From positions 107,302-171,301 of the forward strand of contig CAZNUP010000002.1 in the NCBI GenBank assembly GCA_964576435.1: a stretch of 64,000 nucleotides of DNA, given 5' to 3'. Position numbers and translations under genes: made by a program. Shown here one piece after another: positions 4,937 through 64,000 of the stretch; the stretch's first letter is position 1, and every line of letters starts with the position of its first letter. Below the pieces are notes generated by a model. That model had not been told where the DNA came from. It searched no databases and saw only the letters and a list, made by a program, of their open reading frames with translations. This stretch comes from an uncultured Gammaproteobacteria bacterium (GTDB lineage Bacteria; Patescibacteriota; Microgenomatia; JAMCZE01).

Positions 4937-4940
4937 ATTT

Positions 4941-4970
4941 TTAAAATAAAAAAACTCGCCAAAGCGAGTC
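4941..4970 (-). terminator. Hairpin plus U-tract on the minus strand between ORF 5082..5483 and rplJ. Terminator or attenuator immediately 5' of the rplJ start.
   Basis: CTCGC-caaa-GCGAG stem followed (minus sense) by TTTTTTTATTTT. No Shine-Dalgarno (SD) sequence precedes rplJ. Confidence 0.35.
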
Positions 4971-5081
4971 AAAATAAGAAAATCTATTTTTGCCTCGGTA
5001 GGTCTTTTGCTATTTCTAGCTGCCTACTGTCTTTGGTGGATTTATTATAAATGATTCGAAATGGGTTTGCAACAGGTTGTG

Positions 5082-5483
5082 TTACTGCAAAGAAGAGATG
5101 ATTAACCCACATGCAGCCATTCCTAGGCCAGATATCGTAAGCCAGAATATCGTCTTTTGCGTCACTGAAATCCTAGGTGGGTTGTTTTCGAAATTTATCA
5201 TGTCATATTTTATACCAGTGGTTCGAGCGATGTCTAAGCCCATTCCACTAGTTTCCTCAAGACGGTTCAAAACATCTGAAACCATTTGTTTGGTTGCGTG
5301 CGGATCATCCGCTAGCAGTTTTAATTGCTCTAAAGATGCCCTTGAAGCTTCATAAGAAGTGGATTCATACCCTCTGGGAACATCATTTCCGTCTAATACT
5401 GGAGGGTTTGCACCTAGTCTGAGACTTTCTCTTTCTGCTTTGTTGAATGGTCCTTCTCCTCGAAAAATTGTTTTTAATGACAT
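5082..5483 (-). CDS. Hypothetical tail-anchored protein (C-terminal TM), inserted between rplA and rplJ
   Basis: ORF track. Single C-terminal hydrophobic segment. Confidence 0.35.
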   Translation of the reverse strand: MSLKTIFRGEGPFNKAERESLRLGANPPVLDGNDVPRGYESTSYEASRASLEQLKLLADDPHATKQMVSDVLNRLEETSGMGLDIARTTGIKYDMINFENNPPRISVTQKTIFWLTISGLGMAACGLIISSLQ

Positions 5484-5532
5484 GTTTTATATTATAGGGT
5501 ATTATGTCTTAAAACGCAAGCTTGAAATTTTA

Positions 5533-6375
5533 TTAGAGGGAGATTTTGATGGAGGGACCCATGGTTGCTTTTGTAAATGCTGATTTCACTCTGTCTTTAC
5601 CAATTGATTTAAAGAGAGCTTGGTAGTTTTCTTCAAGTTTCTTTGTATCAAAACTCACTTTTCCAATGATTGTATGGATAATTGGGAGGTCGTTTTGAGT
5701 TTTCCATTGAACTTGACCTTGGGAAAGATCTTTAACTAGTTTGTCTGTGTCAGTTCCAATTGTGCCTGTTTTTGGATTTGGCATTAGTCCTTTTGGACCT
5801 AGGATTTTTGCTACTTTAGCGAGTTTTGGCATCATTGATGGATCGGCTACTAAGATGTCGAAATTTATACCGCCACCAGAACTAATTGAGCTAATTAATT
5901 CGTCAGTTGCAACTACGACTCGAACTTGTTTTCCGGTTCCATGGGGGAGAGCTACTGTGCCTCTAATGCCTTTTTCAGTGACATTTAAATGAAGTTCAAC
6001 GGAGCCGTCAAATTTGGAATAACTGGTTTTTTTGACGAGTTCAAGTGCATCCTTAAGTGAATAACTCTTATTTTTATCAACCATTTCACTTGAAGCGGTG
6101 GCCTTTTTACCAGTTTCAAAGTGATATTGATCATTTAAGGAAGTCTTTTTTGATTTGGATTTCTTTTTGCCGGTTTCTTTTTCACCTTCAAGATCGCCAT
6201 CATCAATGATTGGGTGAGTAGCTACTTCTTCAACGGTTGCGGAAGGATTAGTGTCTTCTTTATGTTTAGTAGCTTCTTTTTGAGCTTTCTTTTGCTCACG
6301 TTTAATTTCAGCCTTTTTCTTGGCTGCTTCTTCCGCTATTTCATCTCCGATGACTACTGTTTTAACTTTTCCCAT
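5533..6375 (-). CDS. rplA: 50S ribosomal protein L1 with a Lys/Glu-rich N-terminal extension of about 90 aa
   Basis: The L1 core (...VELHLNVTEKGIRGTVALPHGTGKQVRVVV...GLMPNPKTGT...) begins near residue 100. The start sits 6 nt after the rplK stop. Confidence 0.8.
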   Translation of the reverse strand: MGKVKTVVIGDEIAEEAAKKKAEIKREQKKAQKEATKHKEDTNPSATVEEVATHPIIDDGDLEGEKETGKKKSKSKKTSLNDQYHFETGKKATASSEMVDKNKSYSLKDALELVKKTSYSKFDGSVELHLNVTEKGIRGTVALPHGTGKQVRVVVATDELISSISSGGGINFDILVADPSMMPKLAKVAKILGPKGLMPNPKTGTIGTDTDKLVKDLSQGQVQWKTQNDLPIIHTIIGKVSFDTKKLEENYQALFKSIGKDRVKSAFTKATMGPSIKISL

Positions 6376-6381
6376 ATATTT

Positions 6382-6807
6382 TTATTCAACTTTAACTCCC
6401 ATTGATCTTGCAGTCCCAGCGACTACTTTACTTGCGGCATCAATATCTCCGTTAGCATTTAAATCTGGCATCTTTGCTTCGGCGATTTTTTTGACTTGAT
6501 CTTTAGTTATGGTTCCAGCTGATTCGCGTCCTGGTTTTTGTGAACCCTTTTCAAGCTTAGCTTCTTTCTTGATAAGTTCAGATACAGGGGGAAGTTTGGT
6601 GATAAATGTAAAAGTTCTGTCTTCAAAAACAGTGATAACGGCAGGAATTACTTGGCCTTTTTGCGCAGCTGTCTTTTCGTTATAAGCCCTTACGAAGTCC
6701 ATGATAGGAATACCCTGAGGACCTAGTGCAGTGCCTACTGGTGGTGCTGGAGTTGCTTCACCTGCGGGGAGATTAATTTTAATGACTGTTTTGATCTTTT
6801 TTGCCAT
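6382..6807 (-). CDS. rplK: 50S ribosomal protein L11
   Basis: [33 protein letters not shown]... canonical L11. Confidence 0.9.
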
Positions 6808-6861
6808 ATGTTTCGTCAGTTAGACTCCCATTTATTCAATGGTACGGTGATTATAGCAAAA

Positions 6862-7056
6862 TTAAAGTTCTTCTGCAATCTCTGCAGTACGTAGAGGTGC
6901 TTTTTCTGTTACACCATTTAAAAGTGGATAACGACGTATAACAGGATTACCATCTAAGTCTGTTCCCTGAACTTCAAAGTATTCAACTGGTTTTGGTGCA
7001 GGGTTAGGTAAATTAATTGTTATTACTTCTATTTTTTCGGATTCGCTTTTAGCCAT
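6862..7056 (-). CDS. Small hypothetical protein (64 aa) inserted between nusG and rplK
   Basis: ORF track only. Confidence 0.35.
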   Translation of the reverse strand: MAKSESEKIEVITINLPNPAPKPVEYFEVQGTDLDGNPVIRRYPLLNGVTEKAPLRTAEIAEEL

Positions 7057-7102
7057 ATGAAAAGTTTAAATTGTCAACTTCTTACAAACAAGAGTTTTTC
7101 GT

Positions 7103-7684
7103 TTAGTCAAGCTGTGTAACTGTGACCTTGTCGTAGTGGACTGGTTGGGGAGAGTTTTGGGTTATAACTGCTGAAACTTTAAAACTAGATGAGTTACATA
7201 CTAAGGTCTGCTTTGTCCAATTTCTTTCAGTTTGGGGAACGGTAAATTTTTCGCTGCAGAGAGTATTGCCTTTATAGCCTAAAAGCTCCAGCGCCCCACG
7301 AGTTTCAGCTAAGGTTGAAGTTGGTTTTACCCACACTATTAATTTGAGGGGTTTTAGATCAGTGGTGTAGTTGTCCACATAGAAGAGGTGACTCCTAATA
7401 CTTACCGCTTTTGGACTTGTTGATTCAGGAACAGTTGTTTTGTTGGGTGTTAACTCCAAGGAATAGACACCATCTAATAGATCTTGTGAGCGTCTAATTT
7501 GTTTTTCAGGATTAGTTGCTTGAATTATTATCCAATCATTGGGTAGAAGAGAACCATTTTGGAGAGACCAAGATTCAAAGCTGTAATTTGATGGATAACT
7601 TTTTTCTTCAGGAGTAGCTATCGCTTGCTTTGGAAAGAAAGTTAAAAAAAGGAGCAGGAATAGTGGAATAAATAGTTTAACCAC
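7103..7684 (-). CDS. Hypothetical secreted protein (signal peptide) inserted between nusG and rplK
   Basis: N-terminal MVKLFIPLFLLLFLTFFPKQAIA. Confidence 0.45.
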   Translation of the reverse strand: MVKLFIPLFLLLFLTFFPKQAIATPEEKSYPSNYSFESWSLQNGSLLPNDWIIIQATNPEKQIRRSQDLLDGVYSLELTPNKTTVPESTSPKAVSIRSHLFYVDNYTTDLKPLKLIVWVKPTSTLAETRGALELLGYKGNTLCSEKFTVPQTERNWTKQTLVCNSSSFKVSAVITQNSPQPVHYDKVTVTQLD

Positions 7685-7696
7685 TAAGTTTGTAAA

Positions 7697-8278
7697 TTAT
7701 AGTTTGGATACTTGTAAGAAATCCAATTCGACCGGTGTTTCGCGACCAAAGATTGAAACGAGTACTTTTAGTTTACCGTGGGCTTCGTCAATTGAATCTA
7801 CAGTTCCTAAAAAGTCAGCAAATGGACCGTCAATGATCTTAACTGCTTCGCCATTTGAAAATGCAGCTTTGAATTTTGGCGCCTGTAATTGACTAAATTT
7901 AACAATTGCATCAACTTCTTTTTCAGAAAGGGGAGTTGGGCGGTTTCCAATGCCTACAAATGCTGTGACACCTGGTGTTGTTCTAACAACTAACCATGAA
8001 TCATCTTCTAAAACCATTTGGACAAGGATATATCCTGGGAAGATCTTTTCTTTGACATCTTCTTTTTTGCCTCTTTTGACAGTGACGGTGTCTCTAGTTG
8101 GAACAACGATTTCAAAGACTTTGCCACCAATATTCATGGCGTCAGCTCTTTGCCTAATAGCTGCAGCGACTTTGTTTTCGTGACCAGAGTAGGTGTGCAA
8201 GACAAACCACTTGGCATTATCTGGTGCTTTTGGAGTTTCTTCGATAACTGGTGTTTGTGCTTGTGCTTGGTCGTCCAT
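7697..8278 (-). CDS. nusG: Transcription termination/antitermination factor NusG
   Basis: [18 protein letters not shown] domain. C-terminal KOW ([18 protein letters not shown]). Confidence 0.85.
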
Positions 8279-8279
8279 A

Positions 8280-8516
8280 TTATTTTCTTGCTAAAACTAA
8301 TTCAATTGCTTTTGCGAAAATTAAATCTAAAGCGCCTAAATAGAGTCCAACTAAAGCTGAGACTGCTATTACTACTATTGTATATTTAACAACGTCGCTT
8401 CTTGTTGGCCATGTAACTTTTTTAAGTTCAACTCTAACTTCTTTGAAGAAGTTAACTGGATTTTTACCAAAATCTGGTGCTGTAAATTGAAATGAACTTG
8501 TTTGTTCGTCGGCCAT
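8280..8516 (-). CDS. secE: Preprotein translocase subunit SecE
   Basis: 78 aa. [17 protein letters not shown] followed by one TM helix. Canonical position upstream of nusG. Confidence 0.75.
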
Positions 8517-8600
8517 AATTTACTTAGTATAAAGGTTCTTTCCAACAAAAAACAGTCTCTTTGCGGACTGTCAAGTCTTTTTACTATATCAGATTTGACA

Positions 8601-9059
8601 TCATCTGTAAAGACCCTTTTCTACAGGGCTTCTTTGGTCTTTTTTGCAAGCTCTTAGATTGAAACCTTGTTTGTCTGTTAGGAATATGATTTCTCCACCG
8701 GTTCGACTTTGATCAAGGATAGTTTTTCCATCTGGGTCGTTTTCTGTATAGAGGAGTGTGGTTATTCCTGTTCTTGAGGTCCCAAACCTGTCTGCTTTGA
8801 CACAGCCATCTTTGGGTTTTTCAGTGGGTGCGGTTGGCTTGGTTTCAAGAGGTTTTGTGTTTTCTTGTGTTAGACCTGGAAGACTTATTGGTATACCGCC
8901 TATTGGCGGTAGGTCAAGATTAATGCCTCTGAAAGTCATTTCAGGTTGGACTATGGTTGTAATCATACAAGCAGGAACTATACAAGCAGTAACTAGTAGA
9001 CCGCTAATTAGGACACTTCTTCCGCTAATTTTATATGTTGGTTTGGCTTTTTCTGACAT
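8601..9059 (-). CDS. Hypothetical membrane-anchored protein
   Basis: ORF track. N-terminal TM, Pro-rich linker. Confidence 0.35.
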   Translation of the reverse strand: MSEKAKPTYKISGRSVLISGLLVTACIVPACMITTIVQPEMTFRGINLDLPPIGGIPISLPGLTQENTKPLETKPTAPTEKPKDGCVKADRFGTSRTGITTLLYTENDPDGKTILDQSRTGGEIIFLTDKQGFNLRACKKDQRSPVEKGLYR

Positions 9060-9105
9060 GAATTTGTGATTTTAGATTTTTGAAATAAATTGTCAACAAG
9101 CTTTA

Positions 9106-9927
9106 TTAATCTGCTTTAGATTTGGAATTTTGGAGGGACATATTTACCCAAGCATTTTTAGCACTTAGTAATAGAGCTGCATCACGGCTATTTAGAGTTA
9201 AATAATTAGTGGCTTCTTCAAACGTTACTCCGATAGAAAGAGTTGGAATAAATCCCGTATATTTGAAATTCATGTGTATAGTAGTCAGTCCAGTTAATGA
9301 GTTTGCTTCTGCGGAAAGATTTTGAGAATTGGTTGTTGGTTCTTTCTCGATGCCATGCGATTCGATACCTAGCCCGTTATCATTTAATTCTGTAAGAGTT
9401 TTAAAACGAGAGCCAGGGAATCCATATTTTAGTGCAGTATGGAAATCATGAAGCCTATGATCATTTGTAACATTTGATGGCTCCCATAGAAGACCAAAGG
9501 CATTGGCTAATATTTTCCCGTCATTAGAAACTTTTTGATCTGGAACAAGCAAAAACTTGGTTTCACTTTTGTTGAAAAAAATCACTGATTGATCTTGTTG
9601 AGGCATTCTTAGCCAGTCAGAGTCGTTAAATTCTGAGACCTTATTAAAAGTGAGTGTGCCTGTAGGAATAGGCTCATTAAAAGCGTCGTGGTTATACGAG
9701 TCAATTATTATGCCCTGAAGACCGGGTTTTATAGAGATAATTCCAAAACTATTGTTTTGAGGGCTGTTTTCAGATGTGCCACAGGCTGAAAGTGCAAAAA
9801 TTCCTAAAATTCCTACGCCCGCATTAAGACTGTGTTTTAAAAAATCTCGCCTGCTAAGAGGTTGCGAATCCCAAAGACTTGTTGGATCTTTTATTAGATT
9901 TGATAACTCTAAGTTTGTTGATTGCAT
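9106..9927 (-). CDS. Hypothetical exported protein with a twin-arginine (Tat)-like signal
   Basis: SRRDFLKHSLNAGVGILGIFALSAC: an RR motif with a lipobox-like Cys. Confidence 0.5.
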   Translation of the reverse strand: MQSTNLELSNLIKDPTSLWDSQPLSRRDFLKHSLNAGVGILGIFALSACGTSENSPQNNSFGIISIKPGLQGIIIDSYNHDAFNEPIPTGTLTFNKVSEFNDSDWLRMPQQDQSVIFFNKSETKFLLVPDQKVSNDGKILANAFGLLWEPSNVTNDHRLHDFHTALKYGFPGSRFKTLTELNDNGLGIESHGIEKEPTTNSQNLSAEANSLTGLTTIHMNFKYTGFIPTLSIGVTFEEATNYLTLNSRDAALLLSAKNAWVNMSLQNSKSKAD

Positions 9928-32034: not shown

Positions 32035-32454
32035 ATGAAATATATTCCTGGTCCAGAGATGGCTGTTTTTTATGATTCTAGCTATTCTACAATTTGTTAC
32101 GGTTCTTTTTCCTTGGGTTCCGGGACAGAGGAGAGAGAAGTTAAGTTTTTTCCGGAATCCAGACGATTGGTTGTTTGGGGTGGAGGAACAGTTGAGGGGG
32201 ATATTGTTGATCAGAACGGAGCGGTTAGTGATAGGGTTATCCTAGAAGATCGAAAAGAAAAGCCTCGAAAAGAGCAAAGGGAACATGGATTGGTCCGCTT
32301 AAATACTAATCCTTATAATGGACAGGGATTGAATAATCCTGGTGTATGGGAGGAATGTTCATTTCTTCCTGGGGTACGTGTCATGTGGTTACCTAATGGT
32401 GAATTCGATAAAAATAAGATTGACGGATATTTTGATAGCGAGAGGTTTATTTGA
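32035..32454 (+). CDS. Hypothetical protein
   Basis: ORF track. Confidence 0.3.
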   Translation: MKYIPGPEMAVFYDSSYSTICYGSFSLGSGTEEREVKFFPESRRLVVWGGGTVEGDIVDQNGAVSDRVILEDRKEKPRKEQREHGLVRLNTNPYNGQGLNNPGVWEECSFLPGVRVMWLPNGEFDKNKIDGYFDSERFI

Positions 32455-32692: not shown

Positions 32693-33148
32693 ATGCGTCC
32701 CATGACGCATTTGACTAATCTAAGAGTAAACTTGGAAACTGAAAAAAATCGCCTTTTGCAGAAACTTAAACAGGAAGAAGAAATTCGGGATTCGGCTCCT
32801 TCAGCCATGGAATCACATTCCGATACGACAAGGCACAGATATGAGGAGTCTGTGCGCAATCTAAAAAATAAAATTGATGAAATAGACCAGTGTTTAAAGA
32901 TTGTTCCGAAGAGTATTCACTCTAATGCTGTCGCTGTTCTTTGGAGTAAAGTAATTTTGGAAACTAATAATCAAAGACAGGAATTTATTCTGGTACCAGA
33001 TGGTATTGGAGGAAGAAAACTTGATAATGGCATTGTTCTTCTTTCAACCTCATCTCCACTTGGAAAGGTGGTATTAGATAAACGATTAGGTGACACATTT
33101 ACTTTTAATCAGAAGAAATTCACTGTACTAGCGGTGACTGATGAATGA
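32693..33148 (+). CDS. GreA/GreB-family-like protein (coiled-coil N-terminus, FKBP-like C-domain)
   Basis: C-terminal [22 protein letters not shown] matches the GreA C-domain motif S.SPlGkALlGk..GD. Confidence 0.5.
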
Positions 33149-33839
33149 TTTCTTCGGTAATTGAGCTGGCTAAAGAATCCATGTATTGACCTATTTTTTC
33201 TCGAGGCATACTTTCAATTTGTAATTCGTGCCAGTTAATACTGCGTCCATATGCTTGTTTGAGTTTGTTTACTGTTTTTATATAACAATTAATCCTGGTT
33301 TCGTTTGCAGCGACTGTCTTTGGGTCATTGGTCGAATCAAGTCCTCTTTTTATAAGTCTAGCATGTAAATCTTCTGCTGAGGATTTAAGGACTATTTGAT
33401 TTCTTGGGATTACATTTGCATTAAGCACTCCTGATAATATTAATCTTTCTGTCATTTCATAAACTTTGCTCGATCTTTCGGCTAAACAAAAAGCGATTGG
33501 GCGTATTTGAGACGAATTCATGATAACCCATTTACCTTCCTGAAGTGCTGGAAGAATTATTTCTGAAAAGTTTCTTCTGAAAGCTCCGAGATAGAACTTG
33601 TTTATAATTTCAGGGTCAAGTGAGTATCCACCTATTTTTTTGAACCTATCATAAAGATTCCCAGCACTATGACTGGTTTCGAATAAATTTGGAGCACATA
33701 CGACAACCCTCTCGTTTGTTTTGTACTGTAGGTTTCTTGCTAAGTGTGTTGATAAAGTGTCTTTTCCGGACCCATCGGGTCCATCGATACCAATTAATTT
33801 ATTATGGGGATAAACCGAAATTTCCGCTGTTGTGTTCAT
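33120..33839 (-). CDS. P-loop nucleoside/nucleotide kinase (deoxynucleoside kinase / dTMP-kinase-like)
   Basis: LIGIDGPDGSGKDTLS Walker A in the dNK/Tmk style. The ATG overlaps the stop of the upstream radical-SAM gene (ATGA). Confidence 0.5.
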   Translation of the reverse strand: MNTTAEISVYPHNKLIGIDGPDGSGKDTLSTHLARNLQYKTNERVVVCAPNLFETSHSAGNLYDRFKKIGGYSLDPEIINKFYLGAFRRNFSEIILPALQEGKWVIMNSSQIRPIAFCLAERSSKVYEMTERLILSGVLNANVIPRNQIVLKSSAEDLHARLIKRGLDSTNDPKTVAANETRINCYIKTVNKLKQAYGRSINWHELQIESMPREKIGQYMDSLASSITEEIIHQSPLVQ

Positions 33840-34927
33840 GGGTAAATATTGGTGGACATGTTTTTATATGATTGAGATATTTCATGTGGGACGCTGCCAG
33901 GTTTATCGGTCAAGAGAAGGAACTCGTCGATGGAAAATCTCGTTTTTCCCTCAGTGGCTACATCTAAACATGTTCCAACCTGGCCGTTTTCGATTCGTAG
34001 TCCGTAGAATTTCTCTCGACACTCATCGGTCCCTTTTAATGGGCATTGATCGCACATGTTTGGTATATAAATCTCTCCGAACTCTTTCACTCTAAAATTG
34101 CCGAAATTTGATATATAATTTTTTCCAGAGCCACTGCTGTCGCCGATGGCTTTGTCTATTGAAATGAGTTGTGCTCCTGACCGTGTTATTACTTCACCAA
34201 GGACTATGTCAGAGGCATCTTTGTGATTCAAATTTCTTTGTAGGCGGCATTTTATACCTAGTTTGTGACATAGTTTTATGATGTTGATTGTTGTATCTGC
34301 ATCGCGTACGACGGTATTGGCTGCTATTTTTAGTGAGGATGTCGCGCTGTATTCTGCAGCTGCTTCTAGATTCGTTTGCTTGTTTTTTAAGCGGGTAGCT
34401 GCATAATTAAGTGCAATATCATGTGAGTTATTTCTAGCTAGCCCTTGAGCAATCAAGTCCATTGCTAAATATTCTTCACACGTTAATGCGTGTAAGGAAA
34501 AGTTGATTTTATCGATACCGGAGGTCATGATATTTTTGAATATTTTGGGGGCAATTTCTCCGTTAGTTGTCATCCCTACAACAACACCAGATTGCTTAAA
34601 TGCCGAAATTATTTCGACAATTTCAGGATGAATGGTTGGTTCACCTCCAGTCAAATGAACATGTGAGTTTCCTATTTTTTTAGCAACCTCAGCCACTTTT
34701 GGTACATCAGTAACTCTGAAGGGGTGGGTCAAGCGTTCAACAAGGGGAAGACTTTTGGATCTTTTCATCCAATCACTGAGAATGGGATTTAGGGTTCCAT
34801 CTTTATCTTTTGCTGTGTTGCCTTCAAGATGACAAAAGTCGCATCCAGATTGGCAGGATGTTGTCATGATGAGTCTAATATCTCCGCCGGATTTGTACCG
34901 CATTGTGGGATTGAATTCGGCATTCAT
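33836..34927 (-). CDS. Radical SAM enzyme, MoaA-like architecture (CxxxCxxC plus a C-terminal auxiliary Cys cluster)
   Basis: TTSCQSGCDFCH. HLTGGEPTIHPEI. MTTNGE. GIDKINFSLHAL. C-terminal CDQC...C...C. Confidence 0.7.
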   Translation of the reverse strand: MNAEFNPTMRYKSGGDIRLIMTTSCQSGCDFCHLEGNTAKDKDGTLNPILSDWMKRSKSLPLVERLTHPFRVTDVPKVAEVAKKIGNSHVHLTGGEPTIHPEIVEIISAFKQSGVVVGMTTNGEIAPKIFKNIMTSGIDKINFSLHALTCEEYLAMDLIAQGLARNNSHDIALNYAATRLKNKQTNLEAAAEYSATSSLKIAANTVVRDADTTINIIKLCHKLGIKCRLQRNLNHKDASDIVLGEVITRSGAQLISIDKAIGDSSGSGKNYISNFGNFRVKEFGEIYIPNMCDQCPLKGTDECREKFYGLRIENGQVGTCLDVATEGKTRFSIDEFLLLTDKPGSVPHEISQSYKNMSTNIYP

Positions 34928-34963
34928 ATAAATATAATATCCTATAGTTTTAAATATGTCAAT

Positions 34964-35413
34964 TTATTCTACTTTTAGAATTTTGATCTTTTTATCCGGG
35001 ATTATGTCTCCTTGCTTTTTCCCCTGGATGGCTTTACCTATAGGTGATTCAGGGGTGACAAGTGTAATGCCGTGAAGATCGACCATTGTATTTGTAAAGT
35101 AGAATGTGAGGGTGTCTCTATCTTTCCCAATACCTTGTTCAATTTCAACATAACAGATGGGTGAAACTGTTTCTGAGACCTCGTCAGTAGTGGCATCTAA
35201 AGAAGTATGGAGGAGCTGTAAGCGTTTATGTCTTGCCTCATTTAATGCAGCATGAAGCTCTGTTGATTCTCGGTCGCCAGAAGAAGATTTAGAGGTGGAA
35301 GCTGCATTAGAAAATTCATTAGCTTCTAGGCGTGCTCGGGTCGACCCAGTTGATGACCTGTCAAGTGCAGCCGCCACTATCCTTTGTAAAGTTTTTTTCC
35401 TTTCTGAATCCAT
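34964..35413 (-). CDS. GreA-family-like protein, second paralog
   Basis: C-terminal ITLVTPESPIGKAIQGKKQGDII...KILKV matches the GreA C-domain. Confidence 0.5.
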   Translation of the reverse strand: MDSERKKTLQRIVAAALDRSSTGSTRARLEANEFSNAASTSKSSSGDRESTELHAALNEARHKRLQLLHTSLDATTDEVSETVSPICYVEIEQGIGKDRDTLTFYFTNTMVDLHGITLVTPESPIGKAIQGKKQGDIIPDKKIKILKVE

Positions 35414-35504: not shown

Positions 35505-35521
35505 AGCCCGGTTTCCCGGGC
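35505..35521 (-). terminator. Hairpin AGCCCGG-ttt-CCGGGCT immediately after the stop of ORF 35527..35742
   Basis: Read directly from the sequence. The following U-tract is weak. Confidence 0.3.
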
Positions 35522-35526
35522 TAAGT

Positions 35527-35742
35527 TTAGCTATTTCTTCTCAACCTAGATCTTCGGGGAGTATGCTCATTGTCTTTCCTTTGATGTGTAGCCTTGTGAA
35601 TGGCCCTGTCGGCTAGTAGTGCTCGATCAAAAACACCAACTCTTCTACGAGGAGTGTTTTGCGTTGTAATTCGATCTTTATCTTCAGATCGAACAGTCGT
35701 GGTTGGAGTTGCTCCGCTTCTTTCGCGAGTGAAATTAAACAT
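35527..35742 (-). CDS. Small Arg-rich basic protein (71 aa), hypothetical
   Basis: SD AGGGTGGTGA 6-8 nt upstream. Hairpin after the stop. Composition like a nucleic-acid-binding or ribosomal-type protein, but no family recognised. Confidence 0.3.
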   Translation of the reverse strand: MFNFTRERSGATPTTTVRSEDKDRITTQNTPRRRVGVFDRALLADRAIHKATHQRKDNEHTPRRSRLRRNS

Positions 35743-35890: not shown

Positions 35891-35965
35891 TGGAGCCTGA
35901 GAAGGGAATCGGACCCTTGACCTCTTCCTTACCAAGGAAGCGTTCTGCCACTGAACTACCCAGGC
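35891..35965 (-). tRNA. tRNA-Thr (anticodon GGT), CCA encoded
   Basis: Manual fold. Acceptor GCCTGGG/CTCAGGC. Anticodon arm CTTCC-TTGGTAA-GGAAG. T-arm AAGGG-TCCGATT-CCCTT, with C at position 55. Confidence 0.8.
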
Positions 35966-35993: not shown

Positions 35994-36395
35994 TTACTTT
36001 GGCAAGGTAGCTTGACGAGGTAACGCTGTTTCGGGGTGATCAAGGATTCTAGAGATGACTATTTCTGTTAGCTTGTCTTGAAATTGATAAGGAGAGTGGT
36101 CAGTTATAGCTCTCCCCAATAGTGTTTTATATGCATAATCTTTTGGATGGAGTGCAATATATTCAGTCGAGTTCTCGGGTGGCGCTTTATTTTCTGGACA
36201 CAGGAAATATTTTTTAATGCCTAATATCGAACCTGAAGTAGGGTCAATTATTGTTAATTCAATAAAGTCTCCAGGTTTTATTTCAAGAGAACGGTTAACA
36301 TCTGCTTTAATATCTGGGGGTCCATCATTCTTAACCCCTCCGGAGGCTATTAGTTTGGCACGTCTTTCTGACTCACTAAGTCGTCTACGTGGCAT
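35994..36395 (-). CDS. Hypothetical protein (possibly a third, divergent Gre-like paralog)
   Basis: ORF track. Weak resemblance (IALHPKDYAYKTLLGRAITD) to the Gre C-domain. Confidence 0.3.
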   Translation of the reverse strand: MPRRRLSESERRAKLIASGGVKNDGPPDIKADVNRSLEIKPGDFIELTIIDPTSGSILGIKKYFLCPENKAPPENSTEYIALHPKDYAYKTLLGRAITDHSPYQFQDKLTEIVISRILDHPETALPRQATLPK

Positions 36396-62897: not shown

Positions 62898-63608
62898 ATG
62901 GCAGTTTTATCCAAACCTCAGATTATTAAACATTTAAAAGCGGGCAATATTTTTATTGATCCATTTAATGAAGCGAATTTAGCCAACACTAGTTATGATG
63001 TAAGACTTGGAAAATATTTCTATCGCCAGTCTCCAATGGATCATACTCAAACTCTTAATCCTTTTTGGGAAAAGTCTGTGCGAAAAATGTATCCTCTCGT
63101 TGAGGAAGCTCAGTCTGTTAAAAGATATAAATCTGATAGAAATCCGTTTTATGGTTTAACTGAGAAAGACTTAATAATCTTAGTTGCCCCCGGTGAAACT
63201 ATCCTTGCTCATACAATTGAATTTATTGGCGGAAGAAATGGTGATAAAAAAAATAATTTGCCTGCAGTAACTACAGAAATGAGGGCTAGAAGTTCAATTG
63301 GAAGAATTGGTCTTGCTGTTTGCAAATGTGCTGGGTGGGGAGACATTGGTTATATAAATAGATGGACTATGGAAATAACAAACTTTAGTAGTTCAATTAT
63401 CCCGATTCCTGTTGGAATGAGAGTTGCACAGATTATCTTTCATGAAGCAGAACCAGTTGAAGAAGCTGATAAATATTACAAGAAGGGAAAATATCAAACT
63501 GCAGGGGATTTGAAAGAGTTAAAAAAACTCTGGAAGCCTGAACTTATGATACCGAAACTTTATAAAGACCCAGACCTTGGGAAATTTGAAAAATTTGCTA
63601 AAGAGTAA
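62898..63608 (+). CDS. dcd: dCTP deaminase-family protein, paralog 2
   Basis: LSKPQIIKHLKAGNIFIDPF...SYDVRLGKYFY...ARSSIGRIGL. Confidence 0.6.
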   Translation: MAVLSKPQIIKHLKAGNIFIDPFNEANLANTSYDVRLGKYFYRQSPMDHTQTLNPFWEKSVRKMYPLVEEAQSVKRYKSDRNPFYGLTEKDLIILVAPGETILAHTIEFIGGRNGDKKNNLPAVTTEMRARSSIGRIGLAVCKCAGWGDIGYINRWTMEITNFSSSIIPIPVGMRVAQIIFHEAEPVEEADKYYKKGKYQTAGDLKELKKLWKPELMIPKLYKDPDLGKFEKFAKE

Positions 63609-64000
63609 TGAAAAATAAAAAAGGAATTTATATTGTTTTTGAAGGAATGGTTGGTGTCGGTAAATCAATCCAGTCGGCTTTAGTTGTTGAAAGATTAAAA
63701 AAAGATTTTCCAAGAAAACTTGTAATATATACAAAAGAACCAGGTGGAACTGAGATCGCACAGGAAATTAGGCGTGTGGTTCAAGGTATGATTTTTAAGG
63801 AAGAGATGGATCCTATTTGTGAACAATACTTATATGCTTCCTCGAGAGCGCAGTCTTTAAGAATGATTGTAAAACCCACTTTGGCTAAAGGAGGGATAGT
63901 TTTATCTGACAGGTCTTTTGTAACCAGTTTGGCTTATCAAGGTTTTGGTAGGGGTTTAGGGATGCCTAAGGTTTTGGAAATCAATAAAGCTGCGGTAGAT
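63607..64000 (+). CDS. tmk: Thymidylate kinase, 3'-truncated by the window edge
   Basis: MKNKKGIYIVFEGMVGVGKSIQS (P-loop) ... DRSFVTSLAYQG. The start overlaps the stop of the preceding gene. No stop before the window end. Confidence 0.7.

Follow-up and report, generated by a model that had tools for sequence, protein, structure and literature searches.

Sugar-modified nucleotides made by radical-SAM (rSAM) enzymes include antivirals, such as the viperin products, and antibiotics, such as albomycin and 4'-thiothymidine. Pairing with a kinase is typical of the prokaryotic viperins (pVips) and of eukaryotic viperin, whose partner is CMPK2. The auxiliary [4Fe-4S] cluster of MoaA is held by three cysteines (CX2CX13C), leaving one iron free for GTP, and the protein ends in Gly-Gly. 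The transcript-cleavage factors GreA and GreB carry an acidic tip, formed by D41 and E44 in E. coli. Among the closest described systems, the twitch rSAM enzyme AbmM and its partner, a nucleoside/nucleotide kinase, act on the sugar moiety of a cytidine nucleotide, and the minimal cluster of ThmA (rSAM), ThmB (nucleoside kinase) and ThmC (an NTPase providing self-resistance) from Photorhabdus produces 4'-thiothymidine (PMC12691670).

A locus with genes of related kinds was found in the window, which is the whole 64-kb stretch of DNA that was analysed. Its features were as follows:

32693..33148, plus strand: Gre-like protein A, 151 aa, convergent with the kinase
33120..33839, minus strand: divergent P-loop kinase of the thymidylate-kinase fold, 239 aa
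33836..34927, minus strand: twitch-type radical-SAM (rSAM) gene, 363 aa
34934..34962, minus strand: candidate sigma-70-like promoter, TTGACA-17-TATTAT, 11/12 consensus match
34964..35413, minus strand: Gre-like protein D, 149 aa, 5' of the rSAM gene on the same strand
35505..35522, minus strand: terminator-like hairpin 5' of D, AGCCCGGGAAACCGGGCT followed by a T-rich tail

The coordinates of the four open reading frames agreed with those of the earlier note, and the ATGA overlap between the rSAM stop and the kinase start was present at 33839..33836. The note had also described an operon bracketed by Gre-like genes. D, the rSAM and the kinase were indeed co-directional, but A was on the opposite strand, and its 3' end overlapped that of the kinase by 29 nt. 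The predicted promoter was located between the D stop and the rSAM ATG, with the -10 element ending 6 nt before the ATG, and would allow a separate, almost leaderless rSAM-kinase transcript; it is a consensus match only, as the count of sigma-70-like matches in the region was not above that in shuffled sequence. The terminator-like hairpin is the probable 5' limit of the cassette. No riboswitch or other Rfam element was found 5' of the cassette, and no att-like repeats or compositional island signal were found around it. The surroundings in the window were housekeeping genes (ddl, murF, rpmG, and a pepF-like gene), not a defence island. No CYTH or other hydrolase gene was found within the 64 kb, and a candidate hidden CYTH gene was rejected.

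All of the motifs previously noted in the rSAM were confirmed in the protein: the cluster motif C25xxxC29xxC32 (in CQSGCDFCHLEG), LTGGEP at residues 92-97, TTNGE at residues 120-124, and the C-terminal motif C292-x2-C295-x7-C303-x16-C320 (in MCDQCPLKGTDECREKFYGLRIENGQVGTCLD). The protein matched PF04055 at 53 bits. Its four auxiliary cysteines (CX2CX7CX16C), located within the C-terminal 72 residues, were invariant across the family. The top folds for the structure model (pLDDT 91) were MoaA, BlsE, and AbmM, and viperins, DesII, SuiB, SkfB, and ChlB were further neighbours. In the model, the rSAM core is followed by a short C-terminal domain predicted to hold one auxiliary Fe-S cluster, as in twitch-domain enzymes. 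AbmM was also the top PDB sequence match, with 31.8 bits for the single sequence and 54.6 bits for the family profile, and the closest characterised rSAM relatives all target the sugar moiety of nucleotides or nucleosides. A sister family aligned to the window rSAM family with an hhalign score of 345 over 327 columns, compared with 183 for MoaA. The window rSAM is neither MoaA nor viperin and belongs to a rare, unstudied family, within a superfamily whose hallmarks are FCH(N/L)EG and the four-Cys twitch domain. A metagenome search with a family-specific DNA pattern returned only 5 loci, and the matches listed in a profile search of genome contigs belonged to the distant sister family, with no close members among them.

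The P-loop thymidylate-kinase-like gene reported as coupled to the rSAM was substantiated, since the protein scored 33.9 bits against Pfam Thymidylate_kin (PF02223; gathering threshold 27). The best folds for its model (pLDDT 95) were thymidylate kinases with TM values of 0.65-0.8, and the dNK similarity was weak. Thymidylate kinases were tested by the TIGR00041 score, the GxxGxGK[ST] P-loop, and the DR[YHF] motif. The TIGR00041 score of the kinase was 30.3 bits, below the cut-off of 83.25, and its P-loop, GPDGSGKDT, contained GSGKDT instead of the canonical GxxGxGK[ST]. The signature GK[D/N]T together with the absence of the near-invariant Asp108 distinguished the rSAM-linked subgroup, comprising the window kinase, which has Asn at this position, and its two closest relatives; normal phosphoryl transfer thus cannot be taken for granted in these proteins. 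The kinase family was small, with 87 relatives among 1.84 billion representatives, and a word-indexed search with the kinase gave no match beyond the kinase itself. The protein is an extra, divergent paralogue of the thymidylate-kinase fold. Its assignment as the housekeeping tmk was rejected because the true tmk lies from 63602 on, where a canonical fragment (63602..64000) scored 101 bits against a cut-off of 83 (TIGR00041).

The two flanking open reading frames had been called Gre-like, and a family HMM built without either window protein upheld this, giving 87.8 bits for A (E 2e-26) and 33.2 bits for D (E 1e-9). The Pfam model of the GreA_GreB C-terminal domain (PF01272) gave 25.3 bits for A and 17.2 bits for D, both below the threshold of 26.9, and 33-41 bits in relatives, several of which passed it. 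With TIGR01462 (cut-off 139), A scored 23.4 bits, D 18.4 bits, and one relative 32 bits, and the Gre N-terminal domain PF03449 had no match in the family. A was composed of an N-terminal coiled coil with a conserved non-canonical tip (type i), matching the coiled-coil family over residues 5-90, and a Gre-type C-terminal domain. The C-terminal domain of D reads TPESPIGKAIQGKKQGD, and its coiled-coil tip was degenerate and Ser-rich (ASTSKSSSGDRE); D shared 57% identity over 37 aa with the rSAM-adjacent Gre-like protein of locus L008. The catalytic acidic tip was not conserved in the family. The tips were not acidic and fell into three conserved, subfamily-specific types, including SSETWHDNAPAE and MTSRYDTQRE, the remaining one being that of window A. 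The two window proteins belong to this small family with conserved non-canonical tips and, as judged from their sequences, are Gre-like proteins and not GreA/GreB transcript-cleavage factors; their binding to RNA polymerase is assumed from the family resemblance. In the two other occurrences of window-A-type proteins that were sampled (L099 and L100-102), an rSAM gene was absent from the vicinity. A possible third paralogue at 35994..36395 was rejected, as its hhalign probability was 0.5% and it had no HMM, Pfam, or NCBIfam match, leaving two Gre-like proteins only.

Gene neighbourhoods were compared across 12 independent loci from the family to which the window rSAM belongs. P-loop kinases were neighbours in five of them (the window, L001, L094, L008, and L093), CYTH proteins in four (L001, L004, L009, and P0026), and Gre-like proteins also in four, whereas Nuc_deoxyrib_tr-like (deoxyribosyltransferase-like) genes and NDP-sugar genes occurred in two each (L091/L098 and L096; L007 and L092). 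The pairing of rSAM and kinase recurred in L001, L094, and the phage contig L103, and a different P-loop kinase was present in L008 and L093. The gene-neighbourhood signature of nucleotide modification proposed for this pair held in relatives, where every neighbourhood examined pointed to nucleotide chemistry. L001 contained the rSAM, kinase, and CYTH together, whereas the window contained only the rSAM and kinase. In the sister family, CYTH was directly downstream of the rSAM in about 47 of the 49 loci, in many cases with the stop codon of one gene overlapping the start codon of the next, and the CYTH partners retained the ExExK motif. The rSAMs of clade II were located in NDP-sugar clusters with NTP_transferase, dTDP_sugar_isom, DegT, and epimerase genes (L092 and L007), whereas in clade I, which includes the window, no sugar genes lay beside the rSAM in any of the 8 loci, and kinases, CYTH, and Gre-like genes were found instead. 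The placement of two family clades in NDP-sugar clusters suggests that substrates may differ between clades. Across the superfamily, whose hosts included Streptomyces, bacteria of the Streptococcus mitis group, Saccharibacteria, and uncultured bacteria, the neighbours were CYTH, kinase, NDT-like, NUDIX, or NDP-sugar genes. Gre-like genes adjoined rSAMs of the superfamily in at least nine independent loci: the window (two copies), L001, L008, L093, L029/L046/L066/L069 of Saccharibacteria, and L103, in which Tmk, rSAM, and Gre-like genes formed, in this order, a single overlapping operon. Among viral sequences, nothing beyond L103 or weak similarities to phage Tmk came up, whether the query was the Gre-like profile, the kinase profile, or the phage rSAM.

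Our preferred reading, which we hold with evenly balanced confidence, is that the locus is a compact cassette for modifying nucleotides at their sugar, with an uncharacterised twitch rSAM at its core, resembling viperin/CMPK2, AbmM/AbmG, and ThmABC, and with a new link to RNA polymerase. From the observed genes, families, folds, and recurrent neighbourhoods, we infer which class of substrate is used, in what order the steps occur, and what the Gre-like proteins do at RNA polymerase; a nucleotide substrate is suggested by the distant homologues (16-19% identity) and the gene neighbourhoods. The N-terminal [4Fe-4S] cluster would reductively cleave SAM to form a 5'-deoxyadenosyl radical, which would remove a sugar hydrogen from a phosphorylated nucleoside, either an NDP or an NTP. 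The second [4Fe-4S] cluster, held by the four cysteines, would aid the radical in giving a sugar-modified nucleotide, and the thymidylate-kinase-fold paralogue would either supply the phosphorylated substrate or phosphorylate the modified NMP. In relatives, the product may be trimmed or detoxified by a CYTH triphosphate-tunnel enzyme, a deoxyribosyltransferase/N-glycosidase-like protein, or a NUDIX hydrolase. The Gre-like pair would most likely be lodged in the secondary channel, through which NTPs enter RNA polymerase, where it could protect against the modified nucleotide or make the polymerase respond to it. The lack of a hydrolase in the window, the deviant site of the kinase, the degenerate tip of D, the family clades in NDP-sugar clusters, and the window-A-type proteins found away from any rSAM are counterpoints to this reading.

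The rSAM had been described as MoaA-like in architecture, and this stood at the level of the fold but failed on scores, auxiliary cysteines, and C-terminus. An ordinary MoaA (GTP 3',8-cyclase) serving molybdenum-cofactor synthesis, with irrelevant neighbours, would agree with MoaA being the closest solved fold, with the top NCBIfam matches of the rSAM, which were MoaA models, and with two metagenome annotations that call relatives MoaA or cPMP synthase. However, the scores were far below all three cut-offs (54.7 versus 284, 78.4 versus 325, and 67.6 versus 231 bits; TIGR02666, TIGR02668, and NF001199 tested), the model matches spanned only rSAM residues 16-156, and true MoaA sequences aligned only over about 140 N-terminal residues. 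The rSAM has four invariant auxiliary cysteines where MoaA has three, it ends in ...STNIYP without Gly-Gly, and its family is far nearer to the CYTH-linked sister family. In addition, MoeA was not found in the 64-kb window, and neither the window nor the 12 related loci showed genes for the molybdenum cofactor (Moco) alongside the rSAM. The MoaA reading is largely refuted and very improbable, and because the rSAM is not a MoaA-type GTP cyclase, the paradox of a MoaA without a Moco pathway, raised in the earlier note, disappears. The viperin-like system also mentioned there was not borne out either. In a pVip-type anti-phage module, the rSAM would make a 3'-deoxy-3',4'-didehydro-NTP chain terminator from substrate supplied by the kinase. 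Matches to the PADLOC pVip models (46 bits) and NF038283 (42.5 bits), the viperins among the structural neighbours, and the kinase pairing are consistent with such a module, and chain terminators built into the cell's own RNA might in theory be removed by Gre factors. The NF038283 score, however, fell far short of the cut-off (180), only the rSAM core was matched, and the four-Cys auxiliary-cluster domain is lacking in viperins, whose architecture comprises a single cluster and a C-terminal NTP-binding extension. A housekeeping context in the window also argues against an anti-phage module, which we consider unlikely, and the copy of the same trio on a phage lends no weight to a simple role in host defence.

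The remaining alternatives assign other products to the rSAM. Like DesII or BlsE, it might modify an NDP-sugar, destined for a surface glycan or a sugar natural product, with the kinase and Gre-like genes incidental. The clade II clusters (L092 and L007) and the presence of BlsE and DesII among the structural neighbours point in this direction, but the 8 of 8 clade I loci without rSAM-adjacent sugar genes do not, and the ATGA coupling of rSAM and kinase argues for a shared function of the two; a sugar pathway is improbable here. By analogy with ppGpp/DksA, the rSAM and kinase, joined in relatives by CYTH, might instead make a modified, possibly cyclic signalling nucleotide with the Gre-like proteins as RNA polymerase co-receptors. 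The CYTH partners most resembled class IV adenylate cyclases (TIGR00318, 35-41 bits, below the cut-off of 58), CYTH follows the rSAM gene as MoaC follows MoaA, the Gre-like tips were strongly conserved and non-catalytic in three subfamilies, and the phage has the trio. This proposal is purely inferential, however, CYTH is absent from the window, and a Streptococcus rSAM-CYTH pair was located in an apparent biosynthetic cluster that also encodes ATP-grasp ligases and an MFS exporter, which favours a secreted metabolite; a signalling role appears quite unlikely. SuiB, SkfB, and ChlB among the fold neighbours, together with an upstream ORF of 71 aa (35527..35742), could suggest a SPASM/twitch maturase acting on a small neighbouring peptide (RiPP). 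This is highly improbable, as a conserved precursor gene and an RRE domain were absent, the ORF was seen in the same organism only and is divided from the cassette by the terminator-like hairpin, and the conserved neighbours were nucleotide enzymes throughout.

Returning to the proposed nucleotide-modifying cassette, the superfamily of its rSAM is delimited, no curated model covers it, and no paper on it was found in the literature; it is therefore a well-defined target for new nucleotide chemistry. The recurrent pairing with Gre-like proteins of non-canonical tips, phage included, suggests that a modified nucleotide is connected with the secondary channel of RNA polymerase. No description of such a connection was found, and literature searches on rSAM with CYTH, the triphosphate tunnel, or GreA yielded nothing relevant. 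More specifically, the locus may represent an unrecognised system in which the rSAM, with kinase and/or CYTH, makes a modified nucleotide and the Gre-like secondary-channel proteins sense or neutralise its action on RNA polymerase. This proposal is tentative and unlikely; if true, it would constitute a new small-molecule/RNA-polymerase-cofactor axis in uncultured small-genome bacteria, Saccharibacteria, and at least one phage.

Compared with known systems, the Gre-like proteins share with GreA/GreB, Gfh1, and Rnk the Gre C-terminal domain following an N-terminal helical coiled coil some 80 residues long and a size of 135-200 aa, but the acidic DxxE(N)AEY tip of those proteins is replaced, and PF03449 is missing. 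MoaA (PDB 1TV7/2FB2), which acts on a nucleotide ribose, shares CxxxCxxC, GGE, TTNG, and an auxiliary Fe-S domain of similar length with the rSAM. It differs in that the identity is 16-19%, the cut-offs of the curated models are missed by a factor of 3 to 5, and behind the cluster motif the rSAM family carries roughly 25 inserted residues that are conserved (LNPALxGWK...PLxxRL). Viperin or pVip with a CMPK2-type kinase is similar in joining an rSAM acting on the NTP ribose to an NMP kinase, with weak HMM and fold similarity. AbmM (PDB 8WM2), which acts with AbmG on the albomycin thiofuranose, shares C-x3-C-x-FCH(N/L)EG and a four-Cys C-terminal CX2CX5-7C...C; at 32-55 bits it is clearly of another family, the other albomycin genes are absent here, and AbmG is by description a nucleoside kinase, whereas the partner kinase here has a Tmk-like fold with weak dNK similarity. 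ThmABC has no counterpart of the Gre-like partners, and the hydrolase in relatives of the window locus, which itself has none, is CYTH, NDT-like, or NUDIX. Compared by description only, the likeness to ThmABC across the superfamily is the combination of an rSAM, a nucleoside or nucleotide kinase, and a nucleoside-triphosphate hydrolase.

The rSAM and its coupled P-loop kinase formed an operon in the window together with one of two flanking Gre-like genes. All four reading frames claimed by the earlier note were confirmed, and two elements found as consensus matches only lay beside them:

35522-35505, minus strand: terminator-like hairpin upstream of Gre-like D (consensus match only)
34964..35413, minus strand: Gre-like D, 149 aa
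34934..34962, minus strand: sigma-70-like match TTGACA-17-TATTAT (11/12) between Gre-like D and the rSAM ATG (consensus match only)
33836..34927, minus strand: rSAM, 363 aa
33120..33839, minus strand: kinase, 239 aa
32693..33148, plus strand: Gre-like A, 151 aa

Gre-like D, rSAM, and the kinase shared one orientation, and the proposed translational coupling was found at 33839..33836, where an ATGA served as both rSAM stop and kinase start. Gre-like A, on the opposite strand, converged with the kinase gene with a 29 nt overlap of the 3' ends and was therefore outside the operon. The promoter-like -10 element ended 6 nt upstream of the rSAM ATG, a position which suggests that the rSAM-kinase transcript is leaderless or nearly so. 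Just upstream of the cassette were a tRNA-Thr (GGT; 35891..35965, minus strand), a 71-aa Arg-rich ORF (35527..35742, minus strand) with no homologues beyond the same organism, and then the terminator-like hairpin; neither an integrase nor att-like repeats turned up around the tRNA-Thr and the cassette. On the other side, rpmG (ribosomal protein L33; 32471..32710, minus strand) was listed as an over-extended 79-aa ORF. Its true start probably lies around 32644, some 48 nt away from the Gre-like A start on the opposite strand, because the family models began matching at Met23. Two orphan ORFs had no family match, one at 32035..32454 (plus strand, 139 aa) and one at 35994..36395 (minus strand, 133 aa). 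The latter had been suggested as a third Gre-like gene and was rejected, with no hit in Pfam, NCBIfam, or the Gre-like profile search and an hhalign probability of 0.5%. An ordinary housekeeping element, the ribosomal protein L10 leader, was found at 4939..5054 (minus strand; RF00557, 61 bits, gathering score 44).

The cluster, TGGEP/TTNG, and C-terminal Cys motifs reported for rSAM were all present (C25xxxC29xxC32, LTGGEP, TTNGE, and C292-x2-C295-x7-C303-x16-C320). Pfam matched the generic Radical_SAM domain only (53 bits). The top NCBIfam matches were MoaA models, confined to residues 16-156, and scores of 78.4, 67.6, and 54.7 bits, far under the cut-offs of 325, 231, and 284, together with this partial coverage ruled out MoaA as the family. 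Viperin, the other label put forward, was ruled out at 42.5 bits against a cut-off of 180, and the PADLOC pVip models gave 46 bits. Searching 5.8 billion clustered proteins yielded just 32 family members (37-51% identity), followed by a gap and then by genuine MoaA at E ~1e-6. The family alignment (A1) contained 41 invariant columns, including both cluster motifs, GGE, and the basic residues K183, R228, K281, and R311; an insertion after the first cluster motif, specific to the family, was among the invariant features. The AlphaFold model built from A1 was confident (pLDDT 91.4, pTM 0.90), and MoaA, BlsE, viperin, and AbmM were among its closest folds. The best solved sequence relative was AbmM (8WM2; 54.6 bits by profile, 31.8 by single sequence), which has in common with the family both the 'FCHNEG' after the cluster motif and the four-Cys C-terminal motif. 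The rSAM is MoaA-like in fold, yet neither MoaA nor viperin; the proposed MoaA-like architecture held for the fold and failed for the family.

A genome scan revealed, among the matches listed, a sister family with 22-28% identity over nearly the full length and the hallmarks of the window's family ('C-x3-C-x-FCHNEG' and 'CxxCx7CxEx(F/Y)YGxR...C'), in Streptomyces, Nocardiopsis, Nocardia, Thermoactinomycetaceae, Saccharibacteria, and the Streptococcus mitis group. Profile-profile scores of 345 (327 columns) against the sister family and 183 (257 columns) against MoaA place the window's family much closer to the former. A CYTH gene directly followed the sister rSAM in about 47 of the 49 loci listed, its start codon often overlapping the rSAM stop codon (L010-L069; rSAM at ~8001-9050 and CYTH at ~9050-9600 in locus coordinates). 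No NCBIfam curated model reached its cut-off for any sister-locus rSAM or CYTH partner. In L023, a single 551-aa ORF may be an rSAM-CYTH fusion. The Saccharibacteria operons ran rSAM, Gre-like, CYTH (L029, L046, L066), rSAM, CYTH, Gre-like (L069), or rSAM, CYTH, NDT-like (L025, L038). A NUDIX gene was near the sister rSAM in 11 Actinomycetes loci among those listed, and nearby relaxase genes point to mobile regions for the Actinomycetes loci. In the Streptococcus mitis cluster (L013 5327..14755; same arrangement in L014-L017 and L037), the rSAM-CYTH pair lay between an Rgg regulator on one side and, on the other, a weakly AlaRS-like protein of 407 aa, two ATP-grasp ligases, and an MFS exporter. 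Its gene content resembles that of a biosynthetic cluster for a small molecule, which could be a peptidyl-nucleoside.

Neighbourhoods of the window's own family were sampled at 12 independent loci, and at least one nucleotide- or NDP-sugar-handling neighbour was found at every one.

Gene order at loci of the window's own rSAM family (L, loci from other genomes, metagenomes or viral contigs; P, protein)
Window: Gre-like D, rSAM, kinase; Gre-like A convergent
L001-3: rSAM, kinase (34% identical to the window kinase), GreA_GreB, CYTH
L094: rSAM, kinase of the window type
L004-6, L009, P0026: rSAM, CYTH; L009 additionally with genes for NTPase_I-T and NUDIX/NrtR
L008: rSAM facing two genes, one Gre-like and one for another kind of P-loop kinase
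L093: gene set of L008, rearranged
L091/L098, L096: rSAM, Nuc_deoxyrib_tr-like protein (30.6 bits, threshold 28.8)
L007, L092: rSAM within NDP-sugar clusters

No CYTH gene was detected across the 64 kb of the window (HMM search, best E-value 1.2). The pairing of kinase and rSAM was kept in relatives (L001-3, L094), with a different P-loop kinase in L008 and L093, and on one phage contig. The phage copy was on L103 (IMGVR_UViG_3300017593_001448), a 62.7 kb IMG/VR viral contig carrying a portal gene (phrog_113, 229 bits) and an exonuclease. There, a Tmk-like kinase, rSAM ('CAWACKWCHNEGTG'), and type (iii) Gre-like protein ('MQSRYDTQREEW') formed one overlapping operon (5453..7357), the same three genes as in the window.

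The window kinase passed Pfam Thymidylate_kin (33.9 bits against 27) and failed the Tmk equivalog (30.3 against 83). A canonical tmk at 63602..64000 (plus strand, cut by the window end) scored 101 bits against 83 with TIGR00041 and 88 bits with PF02223, which ruled out a housekeeping role for the rSAM-linked kinase; the latter is therefore an extra paralogue. Exhaustive phmmer against 1.84 billion representatives recovered just 87 relatives. Thymidylate_kin matched 47 of the 49 members scanned, none strongly (best E 8e-11), and dNK matched 10 of the 49. The closest superpositions of the predicted model (pLDDT 95) were with thymidylate kinases (TM 0.65-0.8) and a deoxyadenosine kinase. Active-site positions 27, 108, 111, 148, and 161 of the kinase family alignment (A4) were compared. 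A subgroup made up of the window kinase and the two relatives nearest to it (P0035, P0109, P0110) had GK[D/N]T, not GK[S/T], and N, A, or I in place of Asp108, which was kept by 46 of the 49 members. One of the two relatives was of the same length as the L001 kinase (240 aa) and equally identical to the window kinase (34%). Judged from the alignment, this is a common signature of the subgroup, not random decay; the change may reflect a relocated metal ligand or altered activity.

The Gre-like profile search returned 73 proteins, with canonical GreA (PF03449 N-terminal domain) solely at the weak end; a leave-one-out profile scored Gre-like A at 87.8 bits and Gre-like D at 33.2 bits. Three types of coiled-coil tip were distinguished: (i) a conserved 13-residue tip in short proteins, including Gre-like A; (ii) 'SSETWHDNAPA[ED]' in longer proteins, including the copies from Saccharibacteria; and (iii) 'MTSRYDTQRE' in L001, L008, L093, and phage L103, in all four of which rSAM adjoined. 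The C-terminal domain of Gre-like D resembled type (iii) (57% identical to its L008 counterpart across 37 aa), but the tip was degenerate. The association with rSAM is not obligatory, and proteins of this family may be associated with nucleotide hydrolases more generally. When two type (i) proteins were looked up from the Gre-like side, no rSAM was near them. One of the two, P0075, which is present on many contigs, directly followed a NUDIX gene on L100-L102 (5239..6435).

MoaA, BlsE, viperin, and AbmM abstract hydrogen from a nucleotide or nucleoside sugar. Because the closest characterised relatives in sequence and several of the closest folds act on such sugars, the conserved neighbours handle nucleotides or NDP-sugars, and parallels are known, we infer that the rSAM and kinase form a cassette modifying the sugar of a nucleotide. 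The kinase would either feed the rSAM or activate its product, and the Gre-like proteins would connect the cassette with the RNA polymerase NTP-entry channel for protection, proofreading, or sensing. Its substrate, product, step order, and biological role, whether in defence, antagonism, or regulation, are likewise what we infer. The cassette is assembled from uncharacterised families, and the literature searched made no mention of rSAM associated with either CYTH or Gre-like proteins. The earlier note was largely correct, with the MoaA and viperin labels wrong as family assignments, and its proposal of a module that modifies nucleotides and has a transcription-factor link, reaching well beyond the window, is supported by comparative genomics. 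Viperin works with the kinase CMPK2. Likewise, the radical-SAM enzyme AbmM acts with AbmG, and ThmA (radical-SAM), ThmB (kinase), and ThmC (NTPase, self-resistance) jointly make 4'-thiothymidine (PMC12691670). Viperin/CMPK2, AbmM/AbmG, and ThmA/ThmB/ThmC are thus parallels to the rSAM and kinase pair of the window.
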